A stretch of 64,000 nucleotides of DNA from Beijerinckiaceae bacterium (GTDB taxonomy: Bacteria > Pseudomonadota > Alphaproteobacteria > Rhizobiales > Beijerinckiaceae), in assembly GCA_025459195.1 (NCBI GenBank), contig JALORF010000001.1, positions 894-64,893 of the forward strand. The letters are read 5' to 3'. Position numbers and translations under genes: made by a program. The notes below the pieces were generated by a model. The model did not search any database. It saw nothing but the letters and a program-made list of their open reading frames with translations, and had not been told where the DNA came from. Positions 15,886 to 23,644 of the stretch are shown one piece after another. Each line of letters begins with the position of its first letter. Position 1 is the stretch's first letter.

Positions 15886-17157
15886 CTAGAACCAGGCGCG
15901 AATGCCAGCAACGACATGAAGAAAGCTGGGGCTTTCGCCAGCTGCCCTGGCGAAGCGGGCGCTATCGCCGACCTTGCTGACCCATTCGACGCCAACATAC
16001 GGCGCGAATTCTCGGCGCACTTCATAGCGCAACCGCATCCCCAGCTCGATGTCGGTCACGCCTGCACCACTGCCAAGTTCGGGAATGCGCTGCGCCGAAA
16101 AATTGATCTCGCCGCGCGGCTGCAGGATCAAACGCTGGGTAACGCGTTGATCGTAGAAACCCTCGGCCCGCGCCGTCACTTCGCCTTTGTTCGACAGGAA
16201 GATCGAGCCAACCGTCCGGAACCAGTAGGGTGCCAGGCCTTCGATGCTGGCCACGGCAAAGGTGCGCTGCGGGTTAGGTCGAATATCTTGGCGCACACCG
16301 ACCTGCCAATTCCACCATGGATCAAAGGCCCGCGAATAGAGCGCCTGCACCTCTGCCTTTTCCGTGACGCCGCGGATGTCGCCTTCGCCTTCTGTCCTGA
16401 CGACGAGCCGGTTCACATCGCCACCGAACCAGCCCTCGCCTTCCCAGCGATAGCCATCCGCGCCTTTGCGGGCGACATATTCGGCGATGTTGAACAGGAT
16501 GAAGCTGCTCTGGAAATTGCCATGTTCGTCGCGCAGCTGCTGCCGCGACGGTGCCTGCACAGCGGCTCCCCAAATGGCATCGGCAGCGTGATCGGTTGGT
16601 GGCGATGGGGCCGGGGTCGTACCGATCTCCTCGGCAGGCACCGCAGCCATTCCCTGCATTGCGCCCATATTGTGCCCGGCGTGCGGATCAGCGGCGGGTG
16701 TTGCCGGGGCCGCAGGGGCCATCCCCGGCATCGCGCCCATATTGTGCCCGGCGTGCGGATCAACAGCTGGCGCTGCCGGGGCCGCAGGGACCATTCCCGG
16801 CATTGCGCCCATGTTGTGCCCGGCGTGCGGATCAGCAGTGGATGCTGCCGGGGCCGCAGGGGCCATCCCCGGCATCGCGCCCATGTTGTGCCCGGCGTGC
16901 GGATCAACAGCTGGCGCTGCCGGGGCCGCAGGGGCCATTCCCGGCATCGCGCCCATTTCATGACCGGCGTGCGGGTCGGCCGCCGGCTTGGCTTTGGGCG
17001 CGCCTGCCGGCTTTGGCAGTGGCTTGGGCTTCGCAGCGGCTGGCTTGGGCGCAGCGGGCTTTGCTTGAGGCATGGCCATGCCGGGCATCATGGACGGCTG
17101 CGCTGCGACTTGCGCTGCGAGGCTTGCGGCGAGGGCGACGATCAGAAAGGCCTTCAT
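15886..17157 (-). CDS. copB: Copper resistance outer-membrane protein B
   Basis: Met/His-rich N-terminal region followed by a CopB barrel (WEGEGWFGGDVNRL..EFAPYVGVEW..GIRAWF); 4-bp overlap with the multicopper oxidase. Confidence 0.92.
   Translation of the reverse strand: MKAFLIVALAASLAAQVAAQPSMMPGMAMPQAKPAAPKPAAAKPKPLPKPAGAPKAKPAADPHAGHEMGAMPGMAPAAPAAPAVDPHAGHNMGAMPGMAPAAPAASTADPHAGHNMGAMPGMVPAAPAAPAVDPHAGHNMGAMPGMAPAAPATPAADPHAGHNMGAMQGMAAVPAEEIGTTPAPSPPTDHAADAIWGAAVQAPSRQQLRDEHGNFQSSFILFNIAEYVARKGADGYRWEGEGWFGGDVNRLVVRTEGEGDIRGVTEKAEVQALYSRAFDPWWNWQVGVRQDIRPNPQRTFAVASIEGLAPYWFRTVGSIFLSNKGEVTARAEGFYDQRVTQRLILQPRGEINFSAQRIPELGSGAGVTDIELGMRLRYEVRREFAPYVGVEWVSKVGDSARFARAAGESPSFLHVVAGIRAWF
16650..16980 (-). 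repeat. 72-bp tandem repeat x5 inside copB (DPHAGHNMGAMPGMAPAAPAAPAV)
   Basis: The gcgcccat(a/g)ttgtgcccggcgtgcggatc core recurs at about 16661, 16733, 16805, 16877 and 16949. Confidence 0.95.
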
Positions 17158-18992
17158 GCCGCATCCTCGTCCTTGCGCACGGTCACGACACGGAACATCC
17201 CGGCATGCATGTGCAGCAACATGTGGCAATGGAAAGCCCAGTCACCCAGCGCATCGGCGGTCAGATCGAACGCCACCTTGGCGCCCGGCAGCACATTGAC
17301 GGTATGCTTGACCGGGCGATTGCCCTTTTCACCTGTCACCAGCTCGAAGAAGTGACCGTGGATATGGATCGGGTGCGGCATCATCGTGTCATTGATCAGG
17401 TTGACGCGCACGCGCTCGTTGTAGCGGAAGGCGATCGGATCGGCACCCTCGCTGAACTTCACGCCATCGAACGACCACATGTAACGTTCCATGTTGGCGG
17501 TGAGGTGAATATCAATTTCGCGCGAGGGGTTGCGCGGATCGGGATTGGGATCGAGCGAGCGCAACTGGCTGTAGGTCAGCACCCGGTGCGGTTCGTTCTC
17601 GAGGCCGGTGGGGCGTTCGCCGGTGCGGTCCATCGGCATCGGCGCCAGCGTTGCAACGCCGGGGCCCATCTTGACCTGCGGCGCAACCGAAGGATCGAGC
17701 ATCTTCATCGATCCCATATCGTGACTCATGCCGGCCATGGCGCCGCCGCTCATGTCCATCTTGCTGTGATCCATGCCGGCCATGGGAGCGCCGGCCGGCT
17801 CAGCAGCGGTACTCCCCGCAGGCATCGCCATTCCCGGCATTTTGCTGTGGTCCATGCCAGCCATGGCGCCGCCGCCGCTCATGTCCATCTCGCCCATGCC
17901 CATGTCTTTCATGGTCAGCAGCGGCCGCTTGCGCAGCGCCGGCACCGGGCCGATCATGCCCATGCGCGGCGCCAGCGTGGCCCGCACAAGGCCGGAACGG
18001 TCGATGCCCTCGGCGATAAAGCCATAGGCCTTGTCCTCGGTCGGGCGAACGACGATGTCATAGGTTTCGGCCACGCCGATCTGGAACTCGTCGGTTTCCA
18101 CCGGCTGGACATTGTTACCGTCGGTGCCGACGACAGTCATGGCCAAGCCGGGGATGCGCACGTTGAAATTGGTCATCGCAGCGGCATTGACGATGCGCAG
18201 CCGCACCCGCTCGCCCGGCTTGAACAGGCCGGTCCAGTTTTCATCGGGGCCGTGTCCGTTGACAAGATAGGTGTAGATCGCGCCGGTGGAATCCGAAATG
18301 TCGGTCGGGTCCATGCGCATCTGGCCCCACATCCGCCGTTCGGCCGCCGACTGGTCCTTGCCGGCGAGCAGACCACCCAGTGTCTGCTTCTGGAAATTGA
18401 AGTTGCCGCCGTTCTGCTTCAGCTTCTTGTAAACCGTGTGTGGATGCACGAAGCTCCAGTCGCTGAGCACGATGACATGCTCGCGGTCGAACCCGACGGG
18501 ATCGGCACCGGCCGGATCGATGACGATCGAGCCATAGTGGCCCATCGCTTCCTGAAGGCCCGAATGGCTGTGATACCAATAGGTGCCTGCCTGACGGATC
18601 GGGAACTCGTACACAAACGTCTGACCTGGCTTGATACCCGGAAAGCTGACGCCGGGCACACCATCATATTGAAACGGCAGCAGCAACCCGTGCCAGTGGA
18701 TCGAGGTGTCTTCCGCCAGCGTGTTGGTCACCGACAGCCGGACGTTCTGGCCTTCTTTCAACCGGATGAACGGGCCGGGAACGCTGCCATTGATGGCAAT
18801 GGCGTGGCCGGTGCGGCCGCCGACCGTGAAGGGGGCATGGCCGATACTAAGCCTGATATCCTCGCCCGACAGCACGTCGCTCGCGGCATTGAGGCCAGCG
18901 CTGCCACTGCGCGCCCAAGCCGGCACCGCCAGCGCGCCACTGACAAGTGATGCAGCGCGCAGAAAGCCGCGGCGAGACGTGAGAAGGGTCAT
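17154..18992 (-). CDS. copA: Copper-resistance multicopper oxidase (CopA/PcoA type), Tat-exported
   Basis: SRRGFLR Tat motif; HWHG, WYHSH, HPIHIHGH and HCHMLLH copper motifs; Met-rich insert. Confidence 0.96.
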   Translation of the reverse strand: MTLLTSRRGFLRAASLVSGALAVPAWARSGSAGLNAASDVLSGEDIRLSIGHAPFTVGGRTGHAIAINGSVPGPFIRLKEGQNVRLSVTNTLAEDTSIHWHGLLLPFQYDGVPGVSFPGIKPGQTFVYEFPIRQAGTYWYHSHSGLQEAMGHYGSIVIDPAGADPVGFDREHVIVLSDWSFVHPHTVYKKLKQNGGNFNFQKQTLGGLLAGKDQSAAERRMWGQMRMDPTDISDSTGAIYTYLVNGHGPDENWTGLFKPGERVRLRIVNAAAMTNFNVRIPGLAMTVVGTDGNNVQPVETDEFQIGVAETYDIVVRPTEDKAYGFIAEGIDRSGLVRATLAPRMGMIGPVPALRKRPLLTMKDMGMGEMDMSGGGAMAGMDHSKMPGMAMPAGSTAAEPAGAPMAGMDHSKMDMSGGAMAGMSHDMGSMKMLDPSVAPQVKMGPGVATLAPMPMDRTGERPTGLENEPHRVLTYSQLRSLDPNPDPRNPSREIDIHLTANMERYMWSFDGVKFSEGADPIAFRYNERVRVNLINDTMMPHPIHIHGHFFELVTGEKGNRPVKHTVNVLPGAKVAFDLTADALGDWAFHCHMLLHMHAGMFRVVTVRKDEDAA

Positions 18993-20456: not shown

Positions 20457-20484
20457 GTGCGATTGAATAACCTGGAGACGTTTG

Positions 20485-20871
20485 ATGAAGACCATATACA
20501 ATCTGCTTGCAACCGTCCTGCTTCTGGCGCTCGGCGCCTCTGGCCCTGCGATGGCCCATGCCAAGCTTGTTTCTTCCACGCCCGCCGCGAACGGAACTGT
20601 CGACAAGCCGGGCAAGGTCGTTCTGGTTTTCAGCGAAAAGCTGATGGCAAAGTTCGCTGGCGCCGAACTCGTGATGACCAGCATGCCGGGCATGGCGGAC
20701 CATCAGCCGATGAAGATCACCGGTTTCACCACGGCGATGAGCGCCGATGGCAAGACGATGACCCTTTTGATGAAGCGCGCGCTGGCCAGCGGGACCTATG
20801 AAGTGAAGTGGTTCGCCGGCGGCGCCGATGCTCACCGGATGGAAGGCAGCTTCCCCTTCACTGTCAAATAA
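20485..20871 (+). CDS. copC: Periplasmic copper-binding protein CopC
   Basis: Signal peptide ending AMA, mature N-terminal HAKLVSSTP, Met motif MTSMPGM, and DAHRMEG. Confidence 0.93.
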   Translation: MKTIYNLLATVLLLALGASGPAMAHAKLVSSTPAANGTVDKPGKVVLVFSEKLMAKFAGAELVMTSMPGMADHQPMKITGFTTAMSADGKTMTLLMKRALASGTYEVKWFAGGADAHRMEGSFPFTVK

Positions 20872-21801
20872 ATGCCATTGGAATATCTGACCATCACTGT
20901 CAGGTTTGCATCATATGCAACCCTGACAGTCTTGTTCGGCTGGCCCCTCTTTGCGGTTTACGCGCTTCCCGCGGGCCTCCCCGCAGGGATTCCATCACGC
21001 CGCGTGCTTGCGCTGCTGGCGCTTGCTGCGGCGGTCTTCTCAGTGGCAGGCATTGTCGCCATGGCAGCGACAATGGCCGGCTCTGCGTTCAGCGCGGTCG
21101 ATAGCGCAACCATCGATGCGATGATCTTCGAAACGCCGATGGGGTCTGCGTGGCAAGTGCGAATGGCAGCTTTGGCGCTGTTGTTGGCGACCCTCCTGTT
21201 CGGCGATTTGCAACACCGCCCGTCTCGTCTTTTGGTCAGCGCCTTCGCCGCGACGGCATTGGCGTCACTGGCCTGGACTGGTCATGGTGCCGCCGGTGAG
21301 GGTAATGCCGGCTGGCTGCAGCTTGGGGCCGATGTCACACATCTGTTTGCCGCAGGCGCGTGGGTCGGGGCTCTGGCAGCTCTGCTGCAGCTGCTGGGGC
21401 GGCGTGCGATCGATGCCACGCCCGCTGTGATGGTCGTCGCGCATCAGGCGCTGGATCGCTTTGCCATTGCCGGAACGATCATTGTTGCCCTTCTTGCCGG
21501 TACCGGGCTTGTAAGCGTCTGGATGCTGGTCGGACCCGATCATGTCTTCGATCTGCTTGACAGCGAGTATGGACGGTTCCTGGTTGCCAAGTTGCTGCTG
21601 TTCGCAGCCATGCTTGGCCTCGCCGCCAGCAATCGCTTTCGCCTGACCCCCGCTCTGGGGCGTCAGATTGGTAGCGGTGTCGAGCCTGCAGCGGCTTTTG
21701 CAGCGCTCCGCCGAAGCATCTTTGCCGAGGCAGCGCTGGCCGCAGGGATCATGGCAGCGGTTGCGTGGTTGGGAACGCTCGCACCTCCAATGGTCATGTA
21801 G
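20872..21801 (+). CDS. copD: Inner-membrane copper protein CopD
   Basis: Multi-TM; LAWTGHGAAGEG, HLFAAGAWVGAL, YGRFLVAKLLL and NRFRLTP. Confidence 0.92.
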   Translation: MPLEYLTITVRFASYATLTVLFGWPLFAVYALPAGLPAGIPSRRVLALLALAAAVFSVAGIVAMAATMAGSAFSAVDSATIDAMIFETPMGSAWQVRMAALALLLATLLFGDLQHRPSRLLVSAFAATALASLAWTGHGAAGEGNAGWLQLGADVTHLFAAGAWVGALAALLQLLGRRAIDATPAVMVVAHQALDRFAIAGTIIVALLAGTGLVSVWMLVGPDHVFDLLDSEYGRFLVAKLLLFAAMLGLAASNRFRLTPALGRQIGSGVEPAAAFAALRRSIFAEAALAAGIMAAVAWLGTLAPPMVM

Positions 21802-21884
21802 CACAGTTGCGGGATCCGCCTTAAGCTGTCGCTGATCGAATGGACATCGACCGGCACAACAAAGCAAAACTGACGGAGAGATAC

Positions 21885-22358
21885 ATGATTGGCAGATTTG
21901 GGATTGTTGCAGCGGCAACATCATTGGCTGTGTTGGCCTCAGCACCCGTGCAAGCACAAGCCGCTGGGGATGCTGAAAAGAGTGCCGCTGTCCGCGCGGT
22001 GCTGGCACAATATCGCGCTGCGATTGAGAGCAAGGACCTCAAATCAACGCCCGATTTGTTCGCAGCCGACTCGCAAGTGTTCGAGTCAGGCGGCAGCGAA
22101 GGCAGCTACGCGAACTACATGGCGCATCACCTCGGTCCCGAGCTGGCTGAATTCAAGTCATTCAAATTTTCAGACTACAAGACTGACGTCAAATTTGAGG
22201 GGCCGGTCGCGATTTCGGTGGAAACCTATCGCTACGTCATCGAGCTGAAAAAAGGTGCGCCTGTGGAACGAAGGGGCGTGCAAACGGGGGTACTGCGGCA
22301 GTTGGATGGCAAATGGCAAATCGTCAGCTTGCACAGTTCTTCCCGCAAGCCAAAGTGA
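21885..22358 (+). CDS. Secreted SnoaL/NTF2-like (DUF4440-like) protein
   Basis: Signal peptide (AQA), FESGGSEGSYANYMAHHLGPEL, C-terminal WQIVSLHSSSR. Confidence 0.75.
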   Translation: MIGRFGIVAAATSLAVLASAPVQAQAAGDAEKSAAVRAVLAQYRAAIESKDLKSTPDLFAADSQVFESGGSEGSYANYMAHHLGPELAEFKSFKFSDYKTDVKFEGPVAISVETYRYVIELKKGAPVERRGVQTGVLRQLDGKWQIVSLHSSSRKPK

Positions 22359-23644
22359 GTAATGCCGGTGTGCCTGCCCCGATTGATCTGCTGCAGCTGA
22401 CCATCGAACGCTGGCGCGACGATCCAGCTGCAACCTATAAAAACTGGTTCCTGTGGGACCAGCGCATCAAAAATTTTCGTTCGATCCGCCGGGGCATCGA
22501 GCAGGTTGTTGCCGAGATCGAAACCGGCAACTTTGGCGTCGCTTATCGCGGCTCCTCGCTTGAGACGGTTGTCCATTCCATCGCCGAGCAGCGCCAGATC
22601 TTCAAGGGTGCCGACCACGCCTTCTTGTGGAAGCCCAAGCTGCGCATTCCGGACATCTACGAGAGCCCGGAAAACCAGCGGGCCTTCGGGCGCCTGCTGG
22701 CCCGGTGTTGCGGCTGCAACGAGGAGACAGAAATCCTTGCGGCGATCCGGACAATCGATGCACTGGCCATCAAGGGTCTGGGGCCCGCGGTTGCCAACCT
22801 CTTGTACTTCTTGCACCCGACCCATGTTGCGCCGTTCAACACAGCAATCGTCAATGGATATAATGCAGTCACCGGCGCCAAGGCCAGGCTTGGATCCTGG
22901 CCGCATTATCTGGCCCTGCGCGATGGTGTGCGCGAACTCAACCAACGTTACAGGCATCTGTTTTCAAATGATCTTGGCGCGGTCGGCGGCTTTTTGTTCG
23001 ATGTGGGATCGGGACGCTACCCGGCGCCGGTCGCCGGCGCGACTAGCGCAGGTGACTGGATCGCCCGCCTTGATGCCGCGAAACAAGAAGCCCTGCGCAG
23101 TGCCAAACCGGGCACTGGTGGTGCCGAGATCGATCGTAGACATTCCGAGGTGCAGGCGTGGCTCCGGGATCTTGGCCGTGCGCTCGGCTATGATGTCTGG
23201 ATGGCCGCCAATGATCGCGGCCGCTTGCACGATGGTGTGCCGCTTGGAACGGGGTGCCTCGAACGGCTTCCGGTTGCCATTGAGACCGCTCCGGGCGCTG
23301 ACATGATCCGATTGATTGACGTCCTCTGGCTGGAGAGTTCGGGCCGGGTGACGGCGGCTTTCGAAGTCGAGCACTCGACGTCAATCTACTCGGGCATCGT
23401 TCGCATGCTCGACCTGGCCCTTTCCGCCAGCGAGTTCCAGACACGGGCAGGTTTGTTCCTCGTTGCACCCGACAAGCGCGAGGCCGAGGTGCGGGCACAG
23501 CTGATGCGACCGGCGTTCAGCCGTGTCGCTCACCTTGACGTCCGTTACCTGCCATATGGTGAATTGGAACAAAATCGCCATTCAATCGCGCGTTTTGGCT
23601 CTGGTCTGAAGGGCATTGAAGCGATCGCGAGGCGGTTGTTCTGA
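22355..23644 (+). CDS. Restriction-endonuclease-like protein: N-terminal HhH-like domain plus C-terminal PD-(D/E)xK-like nuclease
   Basis: IKGLGPAVANLLYF resembles an HhH motif; RLIDVLW..AAFEVEHSTSIYSG resembles a nuclease core; GTG start overlaps the upstream stop. Confidence 0.65.
   Translation: MSNAGVPAPIDLLQLTIERWRDDPAATYKNWFLWDQRIKNFRSIRRGIEQVVAEIETGNFGVAYRGSSLETVVHSIAEQRQIFKGADHAFLWKPKLRIPDIYESPENQRAFGRLLARCCGCNEETEILAAIRTIDALAIKGLGPAVANLLYFLHPTHVAPFNTAIVNGYNAVTGAKARLGSWPHYLALRDGVRELNQRYRHLFSNDLGAVGGFLFDVGSGRYPAPVAGATSAGDWIARLDAAKQEALRSAKPGTGGAEIDRRHSEVQAWLRDLGRALGYDVWMAANDRGRLHDGVPLGTGCLERLPVAIETAPGADMIRLIDVLWLESSGRVTAAFEVEHSTSIYSGIVRMLDLALSASEFQTRAGLFLVAPDKREAEVRAQLMRPAFSRVAHLDVRYLPYGELEQNRHSIARFGSGLKGIEAIARRLF

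Follow-up and report, generated by a model that had tools for sequence, protein, structure and literature searches.

A CopL-family gene in a metal island of a Beijerinckiaceae bacterium encodes a predicted glycosylase-like domain joined to a nuclease-like domain

The DNA analysed here, referred to as the window, is a stretch of 64,000 nt from a Beijerinckiaceae bacterium (positions 894-64893 of host contig C108). It carries, on the + strand, an open reading frame (ORF) of the CopL family that ends with its stop codon at 23644 and starts either with an ATG at 22313 (443 amino acids) or with a GTG at 22355 (429 amino acids). From the GTG, which overlaps its TGA, the frame shares 4 nt with an upstream 172-amino-acid SnoaL/DUF4440-like ORF (21840-22358), which itself starts 38 nt past copD (20872-21801); between copC (20482-20871) and copD the gap is 0 nt. 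Sequence comparison favours the GTG over the ATG, since an 85%-identical homologue (P0003) is also 429 amino acids long and begins at the equivalent place. An earlier note, written from the letters of the window, had described this ORF as translationally coupled to the cop operon and as a candidate defence gene. The ORF is real and the coupling holds for the GTG start; the proposed role in defence is considered further below.

The surroundings of copL are a metal island. They include copA, encoding a multicopper oxidase on the opposite strand, and genes identified by Pfam as encoding an extracytoplasmic function (ECF) sigma factor and a Metal_resist protein. Pfam also places ynfA-merR, merT, a second MerR and a DUF326 Cys-rich protein in the island, and a P1B-ATPase, CopB and a DUF411 protein are found farther along the same contig. 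The host genome (3.23 Mb in 253 contigs, 96.7% complete) has one copy of copL. A scan for promoters and terminators around the gene returned nothing exceeding shuffle expectation.

The identity of the gene was established by comparison with plasmids. A tblastn search found a CopL homologue of 421 amino acids on a pMOL30-type plasmid of Cupriavidus metallidurans, whose source is given as a zinc factory sedimentation pond. The window protein aligns with it without large gaps at 62% identity (262 of 423 positions). On that plasmid the genes are ordered copC, copD, cytochrome c, DUF411, P-type ATPase, DUF2933, the CopL homologue, a small ORF, CzcE-like and CopE. The published order of the cop1 cluster is copC-D-I-(J)-G-F-O / copL / copQ-H-E, with copL being Rmet_6120 (PMC9045368, PMC11647585). 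Because its place between copO (DUF2933)/copF and copQ/copH/copE matches this order, the plasmid gene is copL. All of the motifs that are invariant across the family in alignments of 9 to 81 diverse members, namely WKPKLRIPDIYE, IKGLGP..N..YF..P..N, IDV.W, FEVE[HK]STSIYSG and APD.RE, are present in the window protein, which is also 41% identical to a homologue on an Enterococcus faecium plasmid. There is very little doubt that the window gene belongs to the CopL family typified by Rmet_6120 of the pMOL30 cop1 cluster.

CopL is a cytoplasmic two-domain protein. The window protein and Rmet_6120 are collinear over their full length, share both domains and the motifs, and are each encoded inside a copper cluster beside copCD and P1B-ATPase genes. 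They differ in local arrangement: copL of pMOL30 is divergent from copO-copF-copG-copJ, whereas the window gene is co-directional with the copC-copD-DUF4440 run and overlaps its end. The family name was already known, and the window adds an ordinary further member whose arrangement is new. Unrelated proteins of Xanthomonas and Staphylococcus bear the name CopL as well. In C. metallidurans, copL and copOFGJ have a common divergent promoter region, and copL figures among the cop genes that respond to a metal mix (PMC11647585).

The features of the locus and of the encoded protein are collected in Table 1. Both motifs on which the earlier note had based its two-domain reading are present, IKGLGPAVANLLYFLHP..PFNTAI at residues 139-165 and IDVLW..AFEVEHSTSIYSG at residues 321-347, and alignments place both within the best-conserved blocks of the family. 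Modelling with AlphaFold2 and searching with Foldseek, as that note had proposed, gave a glycosylase-like and a nuclease-like fold as predictions for the respective halves.

Table 1. Features of the copL locus and of its predicted product. Positions are those of the window; residues are numbered from the GTG start.
Feature	Position	Strand	Basis
copL-family gene	22355..23644	+	ORF/translation; 62% identity over 423 amino acids to pMOL30-type copL; PF27126 NmeDI_C relatives
copC, copD and SnoaL/DUF4440-like gene, forming an operon-like run with copL	20482..22358	+	Pfam CopC, CopD, SnoaL_3/DUF4440; spacing
N-terminal all-alpha domain, residues 1-225, predicted HhH-GPD-glycosylase-like fold, CopL-specific	22355..23029	+	AlphaFold2 and Foldseek
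Helix-hairpin-helix motif IKGLGPAVANLLYFL, residues 139-153	22769..22813	+	Invariant residues; hhalign
Invariant N162-T163 in PFNTAIV, in the segment where HhH-GPD enzymes hold the catalytic Asp (xVDTHxxR)	22838..22843	+	Alignments
Variable Ala/Gly/Pro-rich linker with a helix, residues 226-258	23030..23128	+	Alignments, model
C-terminal NmeDI_C-type PD-(D/E)xK nuclease-like domain, residues 259-429	23129..23641	+	PADLOC, Pfam PF27126, model
Putative metal-binding/catalytic residues D322 (IDVLW) and E337-V-E339 (FEVEH)	23318..23371	+	Conservation

A first model of the full-length protein, built with 38 close homologues, was mediocre (predicted local distance difference test, pLDDT, 74.5), and its Foldseek matches, all with E > 0.1, included a weak pointer from the N-terminal half to MutY. 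It was replaced by a model of residues 1-234 built on an alignment of 81 sequences (44-86% identity), which is confident (pLDDT 91.1; predicted template modelling score 0.87) and contains 11 helices. When this model was compared with the PDB, the top 14 matches were exclusively glycosylases of the helix-hairpin-helix (HhH) GPD superfamily. The best was MjOgg of M. jannaschii (3knt; probability 0.99, template modelling (TM) score 0.49/0.54, E 0.095, root-mean-square deviation 7.8 Å), followed by SsOgg of S. solfataricus (3fhg; probability 0.75) and by many MutY entries (0.3-0.57), with E of about 0.1-1. Sequence methods returned no significant relationship of this kind. The domain has no Pfam, NCBIfam or PHROG match (the Pfam release used for the local scans predates PF27126), and PF00730 is absent at E up to 1 from the window protein and from nine diverse members. 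Alignment by hhalign to 23 Nth/MutY domains from alphaproteobacterial genomes paired the hairpin only, over 23 columns, and was not significant (P = 0.016, probability 2.8%). Sequence and profile searches of the PDB gave chance matches only, such as coiled-coil segments of viral spikes, and these were rejected. The predicted HhH-GPD-like fold is thus moderately supported by the model, and membership of the HhH-GPD sequence family is unsupported.

In the hairpin, K140, G141, Y151 and F152 are invariant in the 81 sequences, and hhalign pairs GLGPAVAN of CopL with the GVGRKTAN hairpin of Nth/MutY. Ala145 lies at the position of the Lys (GVGRK) of the bifunctional HhH-GPD enzymes. Where these enzymes have xVDTHxxR or xVDGNxxR, and where Nth/MutY of the same genomes show VDTH or VDGN, CopL has an invariant PFNTAIVxGY, the residue correspondence having been drawn by eye and being ambiguous by 1-2 residues. 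The window protein has no Asp or Glu at all between residues 149 and 181. CopL thus differs from MjOgg, SsOgg and MutY, its sole consistent structural matches, in lacking the catalytic Asp, the lyase Lys and an Fe-S cluster motif. Of the glycosylase reading in the earlier note, the fold stands as a prediction and the catalytic Asp is missing. Since no acidic residue is found where that Asp would sit, the modelled domain is more likely to be a binder or reader of DNA or bases than a glycosylase. It retains an invariant polar set in the 81 sequences (E70, Q79, H88, K93, K95, R97, E103, K140, N162, T163 and D206), a pattern suggestive of a different kind of specific pocket, for binding or catalysis. 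The domain was seen in proteins of CopL length only. The Ala/Gly linker that had been described behind it exists as a poorly conserved, gapped, low-confidence Ala/Gly/Pro-rich stretch at about residues 224-258 (pLDDT 40 around residues 251-258), and is interrupted by a predicted helix.

The C-terminal half was matched by the PADLOC model REase_II (PDLC03534; E = 7.7e-12), residues 258-406 aligning with profile positions 173-322 of 351. More than 7000 relatives were found in a large protein search; all carry PF27126 (NmeDI_C) in precomputed Pfam assignments, and many are named "type II restriction endonuclease". In the full-length model this half forms an alpha/beta core with weak Foldseek matches to YaeQ, XisH, EndoMS and folds of the restriction endonuclease kind. 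The acidic residues D322, E337 and E339 are all kept in the window protein. D322 and E339 are invariant in nine sequences of 34-63% identity, and E337 is missing in one of them only (P0170). Their arrangement is that of a PD-(D/E)xK site in which Glu occupies the third position, and a catalytic role would follow from it. The nuclease-like reading of this half in the earlier note is thus borne out as far as homology and retention of the acidic residues go.

R.NmeDI of Neisseria meningitidis is a 351-amino-acid type II enzyme that recognizes RCCGGY and cuts on both sides of it, at 12/7 nt from the site, and its gene overlaps that of its C5-methyltransferase (PMC2095814). Its C-terminal 150 residues or so are homologous to the C-terminal half of CopL. 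The N-terminal halves are unrelated, the match being confined to the profile positions given above, and CopL differs also in its length (about 420-430 amino acids) and in the lack of a methyltransferase. A similar domain occurs in a solitary alphaproteobacterial protein of about 400-460 amino acids (locus L110, 3923-5305, on contig C76 of genome G011), which is 37% identical to CopL residues 252-391 (E = 2.8e-20) and has the same acidic motifs behind an unrelated N-terminal domain. The occurrence of these motifs with another N-terminal domain indicates that the NmeDI_C-type domain is a portable module. The L110 N-terminal domain has no Pfam match, and no methyltransferase lies nearby; a guess by eye that it might be EVE/PUA-like was dropped for want of that match. 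With its shared cleavage module, the protein may belong to an orphan nuclease family of its own.

No DNA methyltransferase is encoded in the window, as the earlier note had stated, and the observation extends to every orthologue examined. PF00145, PF02384 and PF02086 have no counterpart in the 96.7%-complete host genome, and the one match to PF01555, on another contig (C86), is probably of the CcrM type. None of about 25 distinct Pfam-labelled or annotated contexts of CopL homologues has an adjoining methyltransferase. A motif screen of 94 loci likewise found none beside CopL homologues; this screen, which recovered the CcrM-like gene of the host, is a crude one aimed at C5 and beta-class enzymes, and the Pfam-labelled contexts are the stronger evidence. 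A constant pairing of orthologues with a methyltransferase, a finding that the earlier note would have taken as refuting its reading, was never encountered in the contexts examined. Moreover, the host genome contains 15,940 unprotected RCCGGY sites and no C5-methyltransferase, so that CopL most probably cannot act in this host as NmeDI does. Protection in trans by a CcrM-type methyltransferase (GANTC) was considered and rejected, as the CopL family occurs also in Firmicutes, Actinobacteria, Bacteroidota and Betaproteobacteria. We conclude with high confidence that CopL is not a restriction-modification enzyme.

The distribution of copL is that of a rare accessory gene. Sampling detected it in 2 of 400 genomes from the class and in 5 of 300 from the family, and a search of 185,579 species genomes gave at least 585 that carry it. 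Homologues with 62-73% identity occur in Alpha-, Beta- and Gammaproteobacteria, Myxococcota, Gemmatimonadota, Deinococcota, Acidobacteriota and Planctomycetota, and a second subfamily with 41-50% identity in Bacillota, Actinomycetota, Bacteroidota, Cyanobacteriota, Chloroflexota and Nitrospirota. By tblastn the family is present on 184 plasmids, 124 of these records being conjugative or mobilisable. At cop-bearing loci, CopL has a mean identity of 70% to the window copy, against 46% for the co-located CopC, 43% for CopD and 59% for the multicopper oxidase. These identities show CopL to be under strong purifying selection, of a degree not usual among restriction or defence nucleases. Altogether, copL is an accessory gene of copper and heavy-metal clusters that is rare, has spread horizontally and is conserved to an unusual degree. 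Two copies per genome were seen in Sphingobium rhizovicinum (on one contig), in an alphaproteobacterial metagenome-assembled genome and in a Gemmatimonadota metagenome-assembled genome (pairs L031/L036, L074/L077 and L080/L092).

To quantify the association with copper genes, tblastn searches were run with 34 metal-resistance proteins taken from the window and four reference loci. At least one copper-type gene lies within 10 kb of copL in 45 of 80 species loci; among the 52 loci that are at least 15 kb long, 35 have one or more and 28 have two or more. By the same method, 3.6% of positions in the host genome are as near to a copper-type gene. The nearest such gene is less than 1 kb away in 25 loci, and its kind varies (CopD, P1B-ATPase, DUF305, DUF411, multicopper oxidase). 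The link spans at least a dozen bacterial phyla and extends to distant homologues with 41-47% identity. Those on Enterococcus and Listeria plasmids are surrounded by two DUF2933 genes, lgt, copY and genes for a P1B-ATPase, HMA and a multicopper oxidase; a 47%-identical homologue adjoins DUF305, MerR and ATPase genes; and copper genes accompany the homologues on Hymenobacter, Brasilonema and Streptomyces plasmids as well. A Nitrospiraceae homologue stands directly behind a P-type ATPase gene, and one from Acidobacteriota is divergent from DUF2933, as in pMOL30. Since partners, arrangements and phyla all vary, these associations point to a functional tie rather than to one hitch-hiking event, and we consider it likely that CopL is functionally tied to copper resistance and is not a mere hitch-hiker. 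The DUF4440 gene was rejected as a fixed partner, being near copL in 13 of 80 loci at varying distance and orientation. Separately, the small DUF2933 gene (copO in pMOL30) recurs beside CopL: it is divergent in Cupriavidus (L107, 6268-7967) and in the acidobacterium (L144, 6486-8269), and two copies lie just downstream of CopL on the Enterococcus and Listeria plasmids (L108, L109). DUF2933 and CopL may form a conserved sub-module.

Taken as a whole, the data are best explained by a CopL-family, copper-linked, DNA-acting two-domain protein, a reading that we hold with moderate confidence. The N-terminal domain would bring CopL to a feature of the DNA, either a damaged or altered base or a structure; the NmeDI-type domain would then cut near this feature; and such targeted cutting would form part of the copper-stress response of the cell. 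This mechanism, a nuclease directed by lesions or structures, is put forward tentatively. A narrower and more speculative version, which we regard as doubtful, is that CopL acts as a "lesion-dependent restriction-like nuclease", in which an HhH-GPD domain that was once a glycosylase reads a copper-specific lesion or adduct, or copper-bound DNA, and directs NmeDI-type cleavage nearby. The processing of metal-induced DNA lesions, which the earlier note had offered beside anti-phage activity, is compatible with the genomic context.

Several points weigh against a copper-linked, DNA-acting CopL. According to published reports, copper is not a main cause of oxidative damage to DNA in E. coli cells, which weakens the case for a simple repair of copper lesions. 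The HhH-GPD assignment derives from structure prediction, with a Foldseek E of about 0.1 and a TM score of about 0.5, and the profile-profile comparison did not reach significance. Catalytic competence of the putative nuclease domain is a prediction from its conserved residues. About a third to a half of the homologues have no recognizable copper gene within 10 kb, and metal neighbours are absent around the Pleomorphomonas, Bifidobacterium, Clostridium and Pseudarthrobacter copies and in one acidobacterial context. Horizontally related loci are not independent, and the enrichment over the 3.6% background overstates the number of independent associations. Finally, copL is one of two cop1 genes of C. 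metallidurans that were not induced by acute copper exposure for 10 min (PMC7563307), and the CopL protein was undetected in proteomes of this organism (PMC11647595).

An alternative is a type IV-like nuclease, dependent on base modification, that serves restriction or anti-phage defence and is a mere passenger of mobile metal-resistance islands, its N-terminal domain reading a modified foreign base and its NmeDI-type domain cutting. Like type IV enzymes, CopL combines a putative DNA or base reader with a PD-(D/E)xK cleavage module and is solitary; the module occurs with another N-terminal domain in the solitary L110 protein; the gene is an infrequent accessory one that has spread horizontally and is often plasmid-borne; one acidobacterial copy has toxin-antitoxin-like neighbours, and one Hymenobacter copy adjoins another annotated restriction endonuclease. 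However, the reader fold predicted for CopL is not among the known type IV readers. Identities of 62-73% across phyla, higher than those of the neighbouring resistance genes, are far above what is usual for defence genes, and copper-gene neighbours of differing kinds and arrangements are found in Gram-negative and Gram-positive phyla alike. No defence islands were seen around CopL; the PADLOC search proposed in the earlier note returned the generic REase_II match and no other defence model, and PHROG gave none. We therefore regard this alternative as improbable. The candidate defence gene of the earlier note is better described as a pMOL30-type CopL embedded in copper and heavy-metal clusters of many phyla, and is unlikely to be a restriction enzyme or an ordinary phage-defence gene. 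As to the Hymenobacter copy, a gene for a 398-amino-acid "restriction endonuclease" lies directly downstream of the CopL homologue on a plasmid of Hymenobacter sp. 5317J-9 (L147, 7273-8469), in a cluster that also holds genes for a P-type ATPase, a cupredoxin-domain protein and DUF305.

A regulator that binds DNA, or a copper sensor, modulating cop expression without cutting, has about the same small likelihood. The HhH and nuclease folds would here serve to bind DNA, or metal would be bound through Cys118, Cys121 and Cys301 in the proteobacterial subgroup. PD-(D/E)xK folds serve as DNA binders in some families. C118 is found in at least 90% of the 81 sequences, C121 and C301 are invariant in the group with 62-85% identity, and CopL of C. 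metallidurans has been described as a "cys-rich cytosolic protein" (PMC7563307). The promoter region held in common with copOFGJ and the low abundance of the protein (PMC11647595) also speak for this reading. On the other hand, neither D322 nor E339 varies, and conservation extends through the whole FEVE[HK]STSIYSG block, as it would in an active nuclease; the second subfamily does not retain C121 and C301; and copper clusters have regulators of their own beside CopL (CopRS, MerR/CueR, CopY, CsoR).

Still less probable is a selfish or maintenance nuclease of metal-resistance mobile elements, acting in post-segregational killing, exclusion of competing DNA or recombination/excision and perhaps restrained by antisense RNA. 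The high share of conjugative or mobilisable plasmids among those carrying copL, the Tn3-type transposase, integrase or insertion sequence genes that adjoin it, the weak structural matches to the excision factor XisH and a validated copper-induced antisense transcript within copL of C. metallidurans (PMC7563307) all fit such a role. Yet the position of the gene relative to element ends, integrases and repeats is not constant, some chromosomal copies have no mobile genes around them, there is no conserved antitoxin-like partner, and the association is specific to copper genes rather than to mobile elements generally. As for an ordinary type II restriction endonuclease with its methyltransferase elsewhere in the genome, the reading implied by NCBI/JGI names ("type II restriction endonuclease/enzyme") and by the homology to R.NmeDI, it is close to refuted by the restriction of that homology to the C-terminal half, by the one, probably CcrM-type, methyltransferase match in a genome full of RCCGGY sites, and by the lack of a methyltransferase near any homologue examined, and the database label is almost certainly wrong for the relatives of CopL.

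CopL was named about twenty years ago in the best-studied copper-resistance cluster, cop1 of pMOL30, without an assigned function. To the family name we add here a confident model of the N-terminal domain with HhH-GPD-like matches, the observation that the catalytic Asp is missing, a measure of the copper association against background, and a comparison of CopL conservation with that of the neighbouring cop genes. Whether copper resistance includes a dedicated DNA-targeting enzyme becomes a testable question, because a putative reader-nuclease fusion, never found with a methyltransferase, accompanies copper genes in Gram-negative as well as Gram-positive phyla and exceeds them in conservation. 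If CopL does prove to be a lesion-dependent nuclease, more than 10 phyla would share DNA processing as a conserved component of bacterial copper resistance that has so far gone unnoticed, and the copper plasmids of Enterococcus and Listeria would be included. In Enterococcus faecium and Listeria monocytogenes from farm and food settings the family is encoded on copper-resistance plasmids, so that its role bears on the persistence of these plasmids.

Some further observations were made in the window and the host genome. Between 23854 and 25275 of the window, ynfA-merR is divergent from merT and a small Cys-rich ORF, with no merA nearby according to Pfam. A 799-amino-acid ORF on the + strand (16551-18950) runs antisense to copA (17154-18992, - strand) and is most likely a shadow frame of high-GC DNA and no gene. 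The crude methyltransferase screen also turned up a 211-amino-acid ORF with a DPPY motif on contig C161. In the host genome the HindIII site AAGCTT is strongly depleted (30 observed against about 889 expected; observed/expected ratio 0.034), and CAGCTG and CTAG have ratios of 0.18 and 0.19, respectively. The depletion of AAGCTT suggests exposure to a HindIII-type restriction system.

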